Of a stretch of DNA of 64,000 bases, positions 9,580 through 60,850 are shown piece by piece. Location: positions 144,599 to 208,598 of the forward strand of contig JBEKTZ010000001.1 in assembly GCA_049515535.1 (NCBI GenBank). Reading direction: 5' to 3'. Each line of letters opens with the position of its first letter. The first letter of the stretch is position 1. The notes beneath the pieces were generated by a model. The model saw only the letters and a list, made by a program, of their open reading frames with translations, was not told the DNA's origin and ran no database searches. This DNA is from Candidatus Aminicenantales bacterium (lineage in GTDB: Bacteria > Acidobacteriota > Aminicenantia > Aminicenantales > UBA4085). A program made the position numbers and the translations under genes.

Positions 9580-12500
9580 GATTCGCCCTTCTGCTCGTTC
9601 TCTGCTCGGCGCCGCTCACGCACGCGGCCGAGAATGCCTGGCTCAAGGGATACGCAAAAACCGTCTCCGGAGAAACGATCGGCTATCACTCGCCTTATCC
9701 CGACGCGACTTCGGCGCTTCTCGTCCGGGCCACGGACGGCCGTATGTCCGCGGCATGGGAAACCGCTCCCGTCCCAGACGATTTCAGCGCGCCGGTCGCC
9801 ACGTTCGTCTGGATGGCCGGCCTGGCGACTCAGAAAGGCGCCCACGCGTTTTTCCTCTCGGTCGACGATGAACCGTTACTCGCGTTCCACACCGGAAAAG
9901 ACGCTTCGGAAAAATCCTGGGAAATCCCCGGAAAAAACGGCGCGACCCTGACGTTCAAAACGACGCTCGTCGATCAGTTTCAGGAACTCTTCGGGTTCAT
10001 GTTCCTGACGCTCCCGAAATCCTCGCTCCGGCCCGGGAAGCCCGTCCGCCTGAAAGTCGCCGGCGAAAACGGCGGGAGCCGGGACTGGTTCATGGTCTTT
10101 CAATACGATCTCGAACCGTGGGTCAGGGCCTCAGCCGAACAAGCCCTGGTCCGCAAGGGCGACAAGCTCTCGCAATCGATCCGGGTGGAAATCAGCCACA
10201 TCGGGCCGCCGGAAGAAGCGGTTATTTCAGCCGGAGGCGGCGAAAAAATGACGGCGCGGATCGAGACCGGCTATAACGTCTTCTATCTTCCCGTCGAGGG
10301 ACGAGCCTTCGCGGCAGAAGCGGCCGCCCGGGAAAAGGACATCGCGGTCAGCGTGGGCTTCGGCGGCCGGCCGGCCGTCATAAAAACCATCAAGCTCCGT
10401 CCCGTTGCGCCGCGCGAGATCTGGCTCCTGCCCCATTCCCACGTGGATATCGGATATTCGGACCCTCAAGCCGTCGTCGAAAAAAACCATTGGAGATATT
10501 TCGAGGAGGCGATCGAACTCGCCCGCCGCACGCAAAATTATCCGCCGGGCGCCCGCTTCAAATGGAACGTCGAAGTCCTGTGGGCCGTGGAAACCTATCT
10601 CCGCCAAGCGACTCCCGGCCAACGCGACGCCTTCCTCGAGGCCGTTAAAAAAGGCTGGATCGGCCTCCAGGCGCTTCTGGCCAACGAACTGACCGGGATC
10701 TGTCACCCCGAAGAGCTCTATCACCTCACGGAATTCGCCCGTCTTCTTTCGCGCCGATATGGTCTCGCCATCGATTCGGCTATGATCACCGACATTCCGA
10801 GTTATACATGGAGCCTCGTCCCGGCCCTCGCTCAGAGCGGCGTCAAATATTTTTCGAGCGGGCCAAACTACATGCCGAACCTGCCGGATTCGGGCGACCG
10901 GATCGGGCACGCCTTCAAAAACTGGCGCGACCGGCCATTTTACTGGGTCTCACCGTCGGAAAAGGAGAAAGTCCTTTTCTGGATGGCGGGCCGCGGATAT
11001 TCCTGGTTCCACGGCCTGAACATGGGCAGCCTCAGCTTCGAAAAAAAACAGCCGATCTACGATTATCTCCGGGAACTCGCCGATTCCGGATATCCTTACG
11101 ACATGGTCCAGGTGCGCTACACGACCGGCGGCGACAACGGCCCCCCGGACCCGAACCTGAGCGATTTCGTCAAAAAATGGAATGAGGAATACGAGTCGCC
11201 GAAGTTCGTGATCGCCACATCGCAGGAAATGTTCGAAGAATTCGAGCGCCGCTACGGAAATCGCCTGCCGTCCGTCCGGGGGGATTTCACGCCCTATTGG
11301 GAAGACGGCGCCGCGTCCACCGCCCTGGAGACGGCCATGAACAGGGCCAGCGCCAACCGCCTCCTCCAAGCCGAGACGTTGTGGGCCATGTTCGATCCCG
11401 CGAACTGCCCGGCCCCGGCGTTCTATGAAGCCTGGCGCCAGGTCGTCTTGTTCGATGAGCATACCTGGGGCGCCGCGGACAGCGTCAGCGATCCCGACGG
11501 AGAAAACGCCAAAAGCCAGTGGGCCTACAAACGGGCCTTCGCTCTCGAAGGCCGACAACGCTCGGAGGACCTCCTCGCCGCCGCGTTGAAAGCCGGAACG
11601 AAGGGAGAGTCTCCGCGCGAAGTCATCCTTGTCGCCAACACCAACTCCTGGGAGATCTCGGACATCGTCATGGTCCCTAGGGAACGGAGCTTGGCCGGAG
11701 ATCTCGTCGAGGATGAGCAGGGCCGGCCCATCCCCTCCCAGCGCCTGTCCAACGGAGAGCTGGCTGTTCAAGCGCTGCGCATTCCGCCGTTCGGCGCGAA
11801 AAAATACACCGTCCTCCCGGGCCGCGCTTTGAGCCGGGGCGATGCTGCGGCCGGGCCGCGCAAACTGGCTAACGGCCGGCTGTCGATCGCCGTCGATCCG
11901 CGAAGCGGCGCCGTCTCCAACCTCACCTGGAAATCCTCTCGCGAAATCGAATTCGCGAACGCGGCCGGCGATCTCGGGCTCAATGCTTATCTTTATGTCC
12001 CCGGACGAGACCCGCAAAAAGCGCAGGGCGTTCATCAGGCAAAGATTTCCGTGAAGGAGCCGGGGCCGCTCGTCGCCTCCCTGCTCGTCGAATCCGGCGC
12101 TCCGGGCTGCGCCGGATTGAAACGCGAGTTGCGGGTTTACAGCGGCCTGGACAGGCTCGACTTGATCGATCAGTTGGACAAAAAAGGCGTCCGGGAAAAA
12201 GAAAGCGTCCACATCGCCTTTTCTTTCGCCGTCGCGGGCGGCACGATCCGCGTGGACCTCGGCTGGGGGACGATCCGGCCCGAGGCCGACCAGATTCCCG
12301 GCTCATGCAAGGATTTCTTCTGCGCCCAGAACGCCGTCGATATTTCCAACGCGGATTACGGCGTGACGTGGGTCAGCCTGGACGCGCCCCTTGCCGAAAT
12401 CGGCCGAATGACGGACGAGACGATCGTGGAAAAGGGCGTGCGCTCCTGGCGGAAGGAACTCGATCCCTCTCAGACGATTTATTCTTACGCGATGAACAAC

Positions 12501-27252: not shown

Positions 27253-27328
27253 ACTCGCCCGTAACTTACGACGGGCGAGTACGGCGGAAATGGATCCCCG
27301 GGCAAAACCCGGGGCCCCGTCCGCCGTC
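27253..27328 (+). repeat. Palindromic element, 5'-truncated long form
   Basis: Hairpin ACTCGCCCGT-8 nt-ACGGGCGAGT followed by ACGGCGGAAATGGATCCCCGGGCAAAACCCGGGGCCCCGTCCGCCGTC. Confidence 0.85.
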
Positions 27329-32654: not shown

Positions 32655-33560
32655 TCATTTTCCCGCGACCATGACCAGATGTCTCGGCAAGAAGAACCGG
32701 GACAGGAACCGTCGCCCCCTCGGCTTGACGGGGAGATGCCGAAGCAAAGTTTCCATGAGCAAAAAATAGCCGAGAGGGACCCGCCGATACCCTTCACCCC
32801 GTCTCATGAATCCGTGCCGGAAAGAATAACCCAACCTCTTCGATATCTTGGCGATTTCCGAATAGGTCCACTCTTTGAAATGCAACCCCTCCGGCGCATC
32901 CGAAAAATAGCCGGAGATATCGTGGGGCCCGAAAAACGCATGGGGCGTGCTCAGGATATAAACGCCGCCATCCCGCAGGATTCTTCGGGCCAGGGCAAAA
33001 TGGAACTCGACGTCCTCGGGAAGAAGATGCTCGATCAACTGGTCGCTGAACACGACGTCGATCGAACCGTCTTTCAAGTCAAGGCGGTATCCGTCATAAA
33101 GGATCAGGCTGAAATTCTCTGCCGTTTTCAGAGCCTTGCTTCTTTGCTCGGAAATGTCCAGGGCATAGGCGTGTTCGACAAAGGGGGCTACCGCCGAGGC
33201 AAAGCGGCAATCTCCGGGTCCGAATTCGGCATAGGCGCCGGATTTCTTCAAATACTTTTTCACCAGCCTGAGCTTGGCTTCGCCGCGCGCGTCAAGGGAC
33301 GAGCCTTCGCGGCGGAAGTGGACCCCCGGGCAAAGCCCGGGGCCCCGGCCGCCGTCGATTTCCGTGGCGCTCTCCCTGGCCTTGAGACGAGGATGATCGG
33401 GGACCTTCTCAAAAATCTCCTCATAGATCCGGGGATACAGGGCCGCCCGTTCTTCCCGCGTGGAATTTTTCACTCTTCGGGCGATCGCCTTTTCGACTTC
33501 GTAATGATTCTTGAGCTGTTCGAGAGTCCTATCTTCGGGGAGTTTTTTCTTCAATCTCAT
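32655..33560 (-). CDS. Class I SAM-dependent methyltransferase carrying an in-frame 21-codon repeat insertion
   Basis: EFGPGD, LDIS, SIDVVFSDQLIEH and ILRDGGVY motifs; the insert encodes GGRGPGLCPGVHFRREGSSLD. Confidence 0.88.
   Translation of the reverse strand: MRLKKKLPEDRTLEQLKNHYEVEKAIARRVKNSTREERAALYPRIYEEIFEKVPDHPRLKARESATEIDGGRGPGLCPGVHFRREGSSLDARGEAKLRLVKKYLKKSGAYAEFGPGDCRFASAVAPFVEHAYALDISEQRSKALKTAENFSLILYDGYRLDLKDGSIDVVFSDQLIEHLLPEDVEFHFALARRILRDGGVYILSTPHAFFGPHDISGYFSDAPEGLHFKEWTYSEIAKISKRLGYSFRHGFMRRGEGYRRVPLGYFLLMETLLRHLPVKPRGRRFLSRFFLPRHLVMVAGK
33290..33356 (+). repeat. 63-bp palindromic element, short form, in frame within the methyltransferase
   Basis: CGTC direct repeats at 33290 and 33353 (63 apart); core CCCCGGGC-AAA-GCCCGGGG. 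Confidence 0.92.
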
Positions 33561-33668: not shown

Positions 33669-33953
33669 GTGATAGTATCCTTCAAGGATAAGGAAACGGA
33701 AAAAATATGGAATGGGTTTTATTCCAAGCATTTTCCTCCGGACATCCAACGGCCGGCCAAGCGCAAATTGGCTATGCTCCATGCGGCCATTAACCTGCTG
33801 GATTTAAAGATACCTCCCGGAAACAGATTGCATGTGTTATCGGGCGACCGCAAAGGCCAATTCAGCATATCGATCAATGATCAATGGAGAATCTGTTTCG
33901 CATGGAAGGATGGAAATGCCCGGAACGTGGAAATCACCGATTATCACTCATGA
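33669..33953 (+). CDS. higB: HigB (RelE-superfamily) toxin
   Basis: MIVSFKDKETEKIW...LKIPPGNRLH.LSGDRKGQFSISINDQWRICF...DYH. Confidence 0.95.
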   Translation: MIVSFKDKETEKIWNGFYSKHFPPDIQRPAKRKLAMLHAAINLLDLKIPPGNRLHVLSGDRKGQFSISINDQWRICFAWKDGNARNVEITDYHS

Positions 33954-33966
33954 GGAGGAGAAAAAG

Positions 33967-34272
33967 ATGAATAGAATACCGAATATCCATCCGGGTGAAA
34001 TTCTTCTGGAGGAATTTTTAAAGCCGATGGGGATTACGGCTTATCGGCTTTCGAAAGAAACGAAAATCGACCAAACGCGGATTAGTGAAATCATAAGGGG
34101 CAAGCGGAGTATCTCCGTAGATACGGCTTTGCGCTTCGCCAAGTTCTTCGGAAACTCCCCTGAATTCTGGATTAATCTTCAAAACCACTTCGATATCGAA
34201 GAGAAAAAGAGTGAGATGGAGCAGAAACTGAAAAAGATCAAGCCGTTTATCATCCAATCACAAAATGCTTGA
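33967..34272 (+). CDS. higA: HigA antitoxin (HTH)
   Basis: IHPGEILLEEFLKPMGIT...TALRFAKFFGNSPEFWINLQ; GAGGAG RBS. Confidence 0.95.
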   Translation: MNRIPNIHPGEILLEEFLKPMGITAYRLSKETKIDQTRISEIIRGKRSISVDTALRFAKFFGNSPEFWINLQNHFDIEEKKSEMEQKLKKIKPFIIQSQNA

Positions 34273-40079: not shown

Positions 40080-40185
40080 CCGTCAAGGGACGAGCCTTCG
40101 GCTCGCCACTCGCCCGTGGCTTATATCTACGGGTGAGTACGGTGGAAGTGGACCCTCGGGCAAAGCCCGGGGCCCCGTCCGCCGT
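40080..40185 (+). repeat. Palindromic element, long (102-bp) three-hairpin form
   Basis: CCGT direct repeats at 40080 and 40182; hairpins CGAGCC-TTC-GGCTCG, ACTCGCCCGT/ACGGGTGAGT and the core hairpin. Confidence 0.9.
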
Positions 40186-40286
40186 GGATTATACAACTCC
40201 GGAAGGAGGCTTTTGGTTTCAGCCGTTTATTTTTAGACCTTCAGATTGCTTTTCGCCGAAAACGAGAGCGCGCCCAGGGATCCGAA

Positions 40287-40399
40287 ATCAACCCATTCGA
40301 CTCCCCGGGCTGAAGCCCGGGGTATGCTCAGGGTTAATACTGAGCGGCGCTTTTTACCCCGATTTAAAAATCGGGGTTTGGCGCCGTCGAACGTATCAA
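40287..40399. repeat. Multi-branch palindromic MITE-like element
   Basis: TTCGAC/GTCGAA outer arms enclosing three hairpins; ATCAA direct repeats at 40287 and 40395. Confidence 0.75.
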
Positions 40400-42211: not shown

Positions 42212-42276
42212 GTCAAGGGACGATCCTTCGCGGCGGAAGTGGACCCCCGGGCAAAGCCCGGGCCCCGTCCGCCGTC
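42212..42276 (+). repeat. Palindromic element, short form with a 1-bp deletion, abutting the M61 RBS
   Basis: GTC repeats at 42212 and 42274 (62 apart); GCCCGGGCCCC in place of GCCCGGGGCCCC. Confidence 0.92.
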
Positions 42277-59676: not shown

Positions 59677-59838
59677 CTAAAGATCAAGAGCGAATCTGAT
59701 CGCTTCATCGATCAGGTTGAGTTTCTCCGGATCGAGTGACGCGATTCTCGAGACGAGAAGTTCTTTCCTGATGGTAGCGAGCGTATCGAGGTTAGCGACG
59801 CACTTTTTGGGCAGTCCGTCCTCGGGGCCGAGAGGGAC
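59677..59838 (-). pseudogene. mazF: C-terminal fragment of a MazF/PemK toxin
   Basis: VPLGPEDGLPKKCVANLDTLATIRKELL...LIDEAIRFALDL with no start codon and no N-terminal RP motif region. Confidence 0.8.
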
Positions 59839-60089
59839 TAGCCGGAAAAGGAATCGACCGAAGCCTTCTCCCAGGCTTCGCTGTGTCCGGGAGTCTCGGG
59901 CATCCTCTGATAGCCTTCCACGTAGATGCGGGCGTTCTTTTCCTTTCTTTTCGTCTCTTTCCATAGACGCATAGCCTCGAGGATAAACCCGCTCCGGCTT
60001 AGTCCCCTTTTCTTACGGATGGACTCAAGATCCTGGAATTCTCTGGCGGGGAGACTGATCGTGAATTTCGTAGAATGATTCATGGCCAT
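59838..60089 (-). CDS. Ribbon-helix-helix (CopG/MazE-type) antitoxin
   Basis: KFTISLP...GLSRSGFILEA...YVEGYQRMPE; lies directly upstream of the toxin fragment. Confidence 0.8.
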   Translation of the reverse strand: MAMNHSTKFTISLPAREFQDLESIRKKRGLSRSGFILEAMRLWKETKRKEKNARIYVEGYQRMPETPGHSEAWEKASVDSFSG

Positions 60090-60196: not shown

Positions 60197-60424
60197 TTAA
60201 GCGCCTTCAATATTCTCAAGATATCCGGTCAATTCGGTGCCGCGCCAATCGCAGTCCAAGCAGGAATAAAACCTGATGCCGAGGAGCTTTCGCGGGATAA
60301 TTTCAAAACGCCGCGCGTCAAGGGACGAGCCTTCGCGGCGGAAGTGGACCCCCGGGTAAAGCCCGGGGCCCCGGCCGCCGTGAACCCGAAGGATTTCAGA
60401 GCTGCCGCACAGAGGGCATATCAT
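60197..60424 (-). CDS. Small zinc-ribbon protein carrying an in-frame 21-codon repeat insertion
   Basis: CPLC and CLDC pairs; GAGGAGG RBS; the insert encodes GGRGPGLYPGVHFRREGSSLD. Confidence 0.75.
   Translation of the reverse strand: MICPLCGSSEILRVHGGRGPGLYPGVHFRREGSSLDARRFEIIPRKLLGIRFYSCLDCDWRGTELTGYLENIEGA
60316..60381 (+). repeat. 63-bp palindromic element, short form, in frame within the zinc-ribbon gene
   Basis: CGT direct repeats at 60316 and 60379; differs from the 33290 copy at one internal base. Confidence 0.92.
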
Positions 60425-60616: not shown

Positions 60617-60812
60617 GAGATGTTAGCGGAAATTAGCCCTCTAAGTGGTTCGAAAAATGGGGGTCATGACCGTGCGGGGAGATATTGGAAGATGGATATT
60701 TCGTCCGGACAGTCGAAGACCGGATGACTCGGGACGTGATCGAAAGATACATCGCTCAGCATCGAGACCTCGAGCAAGGGCCTGTGCAGCTTGTCTTAAA
60801 GCTGCGCTCTTG

Positions 60813-60850
60813 GATGTTACCTTAATTACAAGATGTTACCTTAATTACAA
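60813..60850. repeat. Perfect 19-bp tandem duplication
   Basis: GATGTTACCTTAATTACAA twice. Confidence 0.9.

Follow-up and report, generated by a model that had tools for sequence, protein, structure and literature searches.

Two genes in the 64-kb stretch of DNA analysed here (the window, G000:C1:144599-208598) carry nearly the same short unit within their reading frames. The window belongs to a 3.45-Mb Aminicenantes assembly (G000; 32 contigs, GC ~57%). The first host gene, on the minus strand at 32655..33560, encodes a 301-aa class I SAM methyltransferase-like protein and holds a 63-bp copy of the unit at 33291..33353 (plus strand), which in minus-strand reading gives GGRGPGLCPGVHFRREGSSLD and occupies approximately residues 70-90, upstream of the Methyltransf_11 domain (residues 112-202). 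Directly 3' of this copy lies the host target motif GTCGA (33354..33358, plus strand), which is retained in an empty allele of the site. The second host, at 60197..60424 on the minus strand, is a 75-aa zinc-ribbon-like ORF with a CxxC...CxxC arrangement and without a Pfam family; its copy (60317..60379, plus strand) reads GGRGPGLYPGVHFRREGSSLD and is followed by host GTGAA. The original prediction, that nearly the same unit is present in the methyltransferase gene and the zinc-ribbon ORF, agrees with the sequences and with the family of 123 loci to which both copies belong, and both ORFs do read GGRGPGL(C/Y)PGVHFRREGSSLD. Its extent had been given as 33290..33356; a unit does lie there, but the unit proper spans 33291-33353, the rest being a flanking C and the first three bases of GTCGA.

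Other copies are scattered across the window. A copy of the same short form at 42212..42273 (plus strand) is non-coding and abuts the AGGAGG-N7-ATG of a minus-strand gene; it had been described as intergenic with a 1-bp deletion, and its length of 62 bp confirms this. An intergenic copy of a longer, 102-bp form with three hairpins occupies 40082..40183 (plus strand) and is followed by GTGGA, while a truncated intergenic copy of this form at 27280..27328 (plus strand) comprises the right-hand hairpins only. At 10294..10337 (plus strand; E 3.5e-6), 44 nt match the left two-thirds of the element in degenerate form and read VEGRAFAAEAAAREK within a GH38-like gene; this may be what is left of an ancient in-frame copy. 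A 22-nt core pattern has five matches in the window compared with none in 100 shuffles. Of the Rfam families, only tRNA reached its gathering score in the window, and the best Rfam score for a copy of the long form was 20 bits against a cut-off of 55. Both host genes also have small ORF pairs as neighbors, recognized by eye. On the minus strand at 59677-60089, directly downstream of the zinc-ribbon ORF, two overlapping small ORFs resemble a ribbon-helix-helix antitoxin and a MazF/PemK-type toxin, and on the plus strand at 33669-34272, beside the methyltransferase gene, a 94-aa ORF followed by an HTH-type ORF resembles a HigB/HigA-type toxin-antitoxin pair.

A family profile built from 55 full copies and run over the whole genome with nhmmer detected 123 loci of the 63-bp-element family, to which forms were assigned by local alignment. 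The short form (S) accounts for 60 copies, 55 of them exactly 63 bp, and the long form (L) for 43, with 39 at exactly 102 bp; L is equivalent to S plus a 39-bp block with two extra hairpins. There are also four copies of a 129-bp kind (two exact) and four nested composites in which L lies within S (three of exactly 165 bp), while 12 of the 123 loci are truncated or diverged. The truncated copies revealed no extension into a longer element common to them. A canonical length of 63, 102, 129, or 165 bp, all of which are multiples of three (3n), was found in 99/111 full copies, with indels in the other 12, only one of which is genic and lies near the 3' end of its gene. Tandem or nested copies are in direct orientation and units are otherwise single. 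The family is also present beyond this genome. Among 76 loci retrieved from other public MAGs with an exact inner-hairpin pattern, the left end lies at 102 bp in 46 and at 63 bp in 26, and is absent in four. The titles of these records are those of Candidatus Aminicenantes/Aminicenantia apart from a few contigs labelled Spirochaetes, Sedimentisphaerales, or "Eubacteriales," for which mis-binning or horizontal spread could be responsible. A 68-mer was found in 19 of the 41 related genomes, which extend to other genera and another family, and copies that are 100% identical occur in three other genomes. The family looks undescribed, with the kind of element being already known elsewhere in the form of Rickettsia palindromic elements (RPE), intragenic REPs, and palindrome-associated transposable elements (PATEs). 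A limited search of the literature on Aminicenantes repeats and transposable elements and on PATEs yielded no description of it, nor is it described in the available part of one Aminicenantes paper (PMC4381525).

Gene calls from a dicodon gene finder (2,534 genes, 84% coding) place 74 of the 123 loci between genes, 37 inside ORFs, and 12 across an ORF end. Because each ORF was extended to its longest start, follow-up was confined to the 25 copies located 100 nt or more from that start; 23 of their 25 hosts have a Pfam family, and ~20 copies lie deep within conserved genes. These hosts include GltX, with the insert in the catalytic domain, an aconitase-family enzyme, aldehyde:ferredoxin oxidoreductase (AFOR), iPGM (L form), an M28 peptidase, a phosphodiesterase, a histidine kinase, GT2, GT9, a PIN protein, and IspG (C-terminal tail), and both halves of each host gene flank its copy. 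Comparison with orthologues, which the original prediction proposed as a way of finding empty sites, showed the segment to be absent at every site tested. All 17 GltX orthologues lack exactly 21 aa, with a clean gap after LGWTPP, and all four close AFOR orthologues are exactly 21 aa shorter; the segment is missing from 5/5 orthologues of the aconitase-family enzyme, and ~34 aa are missing from 5/5 of iPGM. The methyltransferase segment falls in a variable region, where 3/3 orthologues lack 19-21 aa. No orthologue of the zinc-ribbon ORF occurs among the 41 relatives, and one public homologue, a 78-aa protein, lacks exactly 21 residues (RVH/AQHFEIIPRK, MICPLCGSSDIFRVH/AQHFEIIPRK..., with the slash at the junction). 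An apparent paralogue of this ORF on contig C3 was rejected, its match being confined to its own copy of the element. In at least six host genes, therefore, the element was inserted and is not ancestral.

The same behavior is seen elsewhere, with copies in relatives occupying genes for a UvrD-like helicase, GH94, a DPP-IV/S9 peptidase, GT4, and PGI. Among public proteins, the 21-aa segment (0-2 substitutions) occurs in 10 proteins of unrelated families and the L-form segment in at least 12 more. In an AlphaFold2 model of GltX built with the 17 orthologues (mean pLDDT 87.8, pTM 0.82), residues 235-256 have pLDDT below 50 and no secondary structure, and in the same numbering the insert spans approximately 233-255. 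The low score is due in part to the absence of the insert from the alignment, and the model is compatible with a tolerated loop. Some copies also lie at or near gene ends. Four are found in the last 9-18 nt of ORFs (G000 C2:344879, C5:210979, C5:224396, and C7:210521), the hosts being IspG, a polyprenyl synthetase, an epimerase, and CbiM-PDGLE, where the element supplies a C-terminal tail. A 621-aa GWxTD-domain ORF contains, 73 nt before its end, an L copy lengthened to 103 bp by one extra base (G000:C10:87704-87811); the frame shifts within the element, and the C-terminus of this ORF is thus probably element-derived.

An assembly artefact, the first concern with a repeat of this type, was addressed using public metagenome contigs. 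At the window copy in the methyltransferase gene, contigs of two studies (one with the probable source run, the other independent, at a depth of ~110) enter the element from the host gene on both sides. These contigs break inside the element and none bridges it completely in these two runs because it is a repeat, with a word depth ~390 times the flanking value. A 698-nt contig from a third study, ~92% identical to the methyltransferase gene, omits precisely 63 bp (33290-33352, the position being ambiguous by 4 nt) and retains GTCGA. This contig is a natural empty allele of the methyltransferase site. Together with the three methyltransferase orthologues and the 78-aa zinc-ribbon homologue, it also upholds the earlier proposal that removal of 63 bp restores the host frames. 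The view that the unit is immobile, either produced by faulty assembly or representing a shared functional peptide module that recombination has spread, can draw on the metagenome-type assembly and on the breakage of the Logan contigs inside the repeat. However, both host-gene halves flank each copy, two studies contain the junctions, another has an exact 63-bp empty allele, 74/123 copies are intergenic, and the same DNA is read in five different frames, which leaves this view extremely improbable.

Insertion is specific on one side only. The five bases 3' of the element are strongly conserved among 110 full copies (G109 T88 S99 G100 A85), whereas the six bases 5' of the same copies show no preference. 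The element inserts immediately 5' of host GTSGA and without duplication beyond an ambiguous GT. This motif is host sequence: the empty methyltransferase allele retains it, in the zinc-ribbon homologue it codes for the conserved VH, the GltX site agrees with it, and it also matches the S-internal GTGGA where L copies are nested. The CGT(C) direct repeats exactly 63 bp apart which had been noted around both genic copies in the window are real at those copies, but family-wide only GT is common to both junctions (88/110 copies); C precedes the element in 39/110, and CGTC straddles the 3' junction in 64/110. As the target motif is host-owned, the repeats are made up of the element's own GTC start and the target GTSGA and do not represent a target duplication. 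Terminal inverted repeats (TIRs) are absent, with the first 12 nt and the reverse complement of the last 12 matching at 4/12 positions. Read on the other strand, the element is 5'-TCSAC/GGCGGCC...CCCTTGAC-3', with a specific pentamer on its 5' side and a similar five-base sequence closing it. The fold of S is a single long imperfect hairpin, and that of L comprises three hairpins (DNA dG -42 to -44 kcal/mol, z -6 to -7). The hairpins are not supported by covariation across 94 canonical copies, in which single changes kept the pair in 43 cases and broke it in 79, and double changes kept it in nine and broke it in 13. The GT found at both junctions in most copies would also suit a classical cut-and-paste MITE of 61 bp that is mobilized by a DDE transposase and duplicates a 2-bp (GT) target. 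The lack of TIRs and the strongly one-sided conservation of the flank over 5 nt argue against such an element, and we consider it highly unlikely.

The orientation of the element is tied to the replication strand, with GC skew serving as a proxy for replication direction in this 32-contig assembly. Orientation follows the sign of local GC skew (±25 kb) at 95 of 123 loci and is discordant at 28 (Fisher 1e-9); concordance is 49/60 for S, 30/43 for L, and 21/25 for intragenic copies. Same-strand runs are evident along contigs (12/13 on C1, 9/9 on C7). As a control, the target motif itself is 47% concordant with GC skew, and element orientation has no relation to gene orientation (p = 1). A bias of this kind is not expected of a simple double-strand MITE. 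The strand with TCSAC/element is the G-rich strand, which by the usual skew rule is the lagging-strand template. In the part of the IS200/IS605 literature drawn on here (PMC5027513), the elements enter single-stranded DNA at the replication fork with their left end 3' of a tetra- or pentanucleotide and with biased orientation on the lagging-strand template, and the direction of the bias seen here matches that rule.

The length and open frames of the element explain how it is accommodated in genes. The 63-bp form is open in 5/6 frames and L in 3/6 in this genome, and the TGA-bearing frame is never used. Given lengths of 3n and the absence of stops from most frames, insertion in a gene adds a segment of 21 or 34 residues and does not break it. 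The original prediction of a non-autonomous element tolerated in ORFs for these two reasons is therefore in line with the 99/111 canonical lengths and the five open frames. The peptides so added would be passive surface loops and not functional modules. Frames among the 25 followed copies (F1 13, R1 5, R3 4, F2 ~2, F3 1, R2 0) roughly follow those of the target motif in genes (F1 39%, R3 41%, R1 9%, F2 9%, F3 2%, R2 1%), indicating that the frames used stem from target codon context (GAC / xTC-GAC); the frame common to both window copies needs no special explanation. GT[CG]GA is in coding DNA 90% of the time, yet only ~17-20% of copies (about one in six) are deep in genes, which implies that most genic insertions are lost. 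A further expectation, that coding copies would be more frame-preserving than intergenic ones, did not hold, with indels in one of ~20 coding and ~11 of ~90 intergenic copies. A 3n length characterizes the family throughout and not a selected subset.

Comparison with three other repeat families in the genome supports the importance of length. None of their 58 copies is intragenic, compared with 21/123 for the 63-bp family (Fisher 2.6e-4), and their apparent lengths (115, ~208, and 88 bp) are all 3n+1, in a comparison of four families in one genome for which the lengths of the other three come from BLAST boundaries and not from empty sites. One of these 3n+1 families is open in 5/6 frames and yet is never genic, which points to length as the critical property. 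Intergenic copies of the 63-bp family are distributed among tandem, divergent, and convergent spacers in a 45:15:13 ratio against a background of 1277:365:343, a spacer-type spread that gives no hint of a terminator or promoter role.

The one-sided target, the absence of TIRs and of a real target duplication, and the skew-tied orientation fit single-strand transposition by an HUH enzyme. The element would move as single-stranded DNA in a replication-coupled manner, similar to the "peel and paste" of IS200/IS605 and to PATEs, with a Y1 or Y2 HUH transposase supplied in trans and with the active strand, 5'-TCSAC/GGCGGCC...CCCTTGAC-3', on the lagging-strand template. We lean toward HUH single-strand transposition of some kind as the mode of movement, judging by sequence features and with candidate enzymes only. 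The joint reading of the unit as a dispersed, non-autonomous mobile element of Aminicenantes, rich in hairpins and moving in this way, is on balance probable.

No autonomous partner with alignable ends was found. The closest in style is a 607-bp IS200-like element (locus L001, G000:C9:106483-109845, at 1414-2020 of the locus) inserted after TTGAC inside an IS1595-type gene. Its tnpA carries an internal TAA stop, and an intact copy with the same ends is present in a relative (L174). In both copies TTGAC serves as the insertion target and also forms the terminus, the hairpins being CCCCGCGG...CCGCGGGG, and the terminal TTGAC and the CCCCG...CGGGG hairpin style are held in common with the 63-bp family; the ends, however, do not align with the element and hairpin-to-end spacings differ. 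IS200-type tnpA was found in only 2/6 element-bearing genomes examined and is broken in this one, where TnpB (PF07282) was not found (94% completeness). In the window itself, a 46-codon remnant of an IS200-type TnpA C-terminus, similar by eye to the TnpA of L001 and not an intact gene, lies at 60685..60825 (plus strand), ~300 bp from the zinc-ribbon copy.

A 341-aa protein with a Y1_Tnp domain and a C-terminal extension occurs in every element-bearing genome examined. It is the candidate for a different origin, in which the family would belong with the CGTC-tagged REP/REPIN-like elements and owe its formation or movement to a RAYT-like Y1 protein. The CGTC across the 3' junction in 64/110 copies agrees with this origin, as do CGTC-tagged REPs, RPE-4 and RPE-6 among them, that reside inside genes without a dedicated transposase (PMC3733652, in the part available). 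However, the Y1 protein is found in 34 of the 41 relatives, including element-free genomes, and with no phyletic link it was rejected as a partner; its gene is not flanked by copies, the nearest being ~3.3 and 3.6 kb away. The family resembles the GTAG- and CGTC-tagged REPs catalogued by Di Nocera et al. (2013), as far as the consulted part of that study goes, in that these are small GC-rich stem-loops with some intragenic members, including in tRNA synthetase and UvrD-type genes (PMC3733652). In the same source REPs measure 20-40 bp and are mostly inverted dimers downstream of genes, whereas the units here are single and of 63-129 bp (63-102 bp for the main forms), CGTC arises only across the junction, and intergenic copies spread like the spacer background. 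A REP/RAYT origin is accordingly rather unlikely.

Mobilization by an IS91-family transposase (Y2 HUH, rolling-circle) would be another route. IS91-type elements insert beside a short specific sequence without duplication, which agrees with the behavior seen here; the genome contains six Y2_Tnp (IS91-type) matches, and the element's end contains CTTG. Against this, no match to the element was found at or beside the six Y2_Tnp places with nhmmer at E values up to 10, and in other MAGs the element itself resides in IS91 transposase genes, so that we regard IS91 as an unlikely source of mobility.

If HUH single-strand transposition does move the element, its nearest relatives in mechanism would be PATEs, the ends-only derivatives of IS200/IS605. 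To our knowledge, PATEs are not associated with 3n lengths or with systematic in-frame residence in genes. The family resembles them in lacking TIRs, in its strong hairpins, and in insertion beside a specific pentanucleotide without duplication, and, insofar as the cited part of PMC5027513 describes them, in a terminus (TTGAC) that is similar to the target (TCSAC) and in a lagging-strand-template orientation bias. It differs in having no parent IS with alignable ends, and while IS200/IS605 ends typically have two subterminal hairpins, the short form here has one long hairpin only. In terms of behavior the family resembles RPE. In-frame residence of palindromic repeats is the RPE hallmark and is also known for other MITEs, and a large share of RPE are intragenic, with 44 RPE insertions reported in R. 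conorii genes (PMC10969869, from the part of the text at hand). Like RPE, the element adds a peptide in frame to unrelated conserved genes. The likeness lies in this behavior: Aminicenantes are free-living members of another phylum, the units are 63 or 102 bp as opposed to ~100-150 bp, and a target motif and strand bias here point to a transposition mechanism. The original prediction took the family to be unrelated to RPE, but some kinship is conceivable, as RPE-4 and RPE-6 are classed among CGTC-tagged REPs (PMC3733652) and most copies here have CGTC across the 3' junction. ERIC, QMITE1, and BOX are also non-autonomous repeats with open frames that are occasionally read as protein, but in the same partial source they have TIRs and target duplications, and intragenic copies are exceptional (PMC10969869), whereas about one in six copies is intragenic here and all forms are 3n.

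Overall, the 63-bp element is a well-supported case of a familiar type of in-frame repeat, here representing a new family in a phylum new to the type, and what sets it apart is the combination of 3n length in all forms, a one-sided five-base target, and a strong replication-strand bias. Selfish repeats that insert in frame are familiar chiefly from Rickettsia, and their mode of movement has been obscure. The present family, from free-living and uncultured bacteria, offers clear clues in the form of many near-identical copies in several genera, a 5-nt target, strand bias, and filled and empty alleles in public metagenomes. Lagging-strand single-stranded DNA transposition, if true, would provide a mechanism for the spread of in-frame repeats. 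It is a more tentative and rather doubtful possibility that this is a single-stranded DNA HUH transposon lineage adapted, at the level of the element, to living in genes, as every form is 3n and the frames exposed by the target are stop-free. If the 3n length is an adaptation, it would represent selection on a transposon for harmlessness in genes, with parallels in the self-splicing of IStrons and inteins, and a gene-adapted lineage of this type would be the first link of RPE-like "peptide-writing" repeats and orphan CGTC-tagged REPs to lagging-strand transposition. There is also a practical consequence for annotation, as at least 22 public proteins of unrelated families have an element-derived segment, which can mislead domain and homology analyses.

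The three other repeat families have features of their own. A second hairpin repeat of ~115 bp lies in the window at 40285-40399 (G000:C1:184883-184997) and has 19 more copies, all 20 being intergenic; it forms a CCCCGGGC-TGAA-GCCCGGGG hairpin, ends in ...GGCGCCGTCGAACG, and may share the GTCGA target. The third is a multi-hairpin repeat of ~170-210 bp found at G000:C2:227187-227394 and 21 other places, with one end reading ...CCAAATTGACT, and the fourth, also multi-hairpin, measures 88 bp and occurs at G000:C2:302816-302903 and 15 other places. All 38 copies of these last two families are intergenic.
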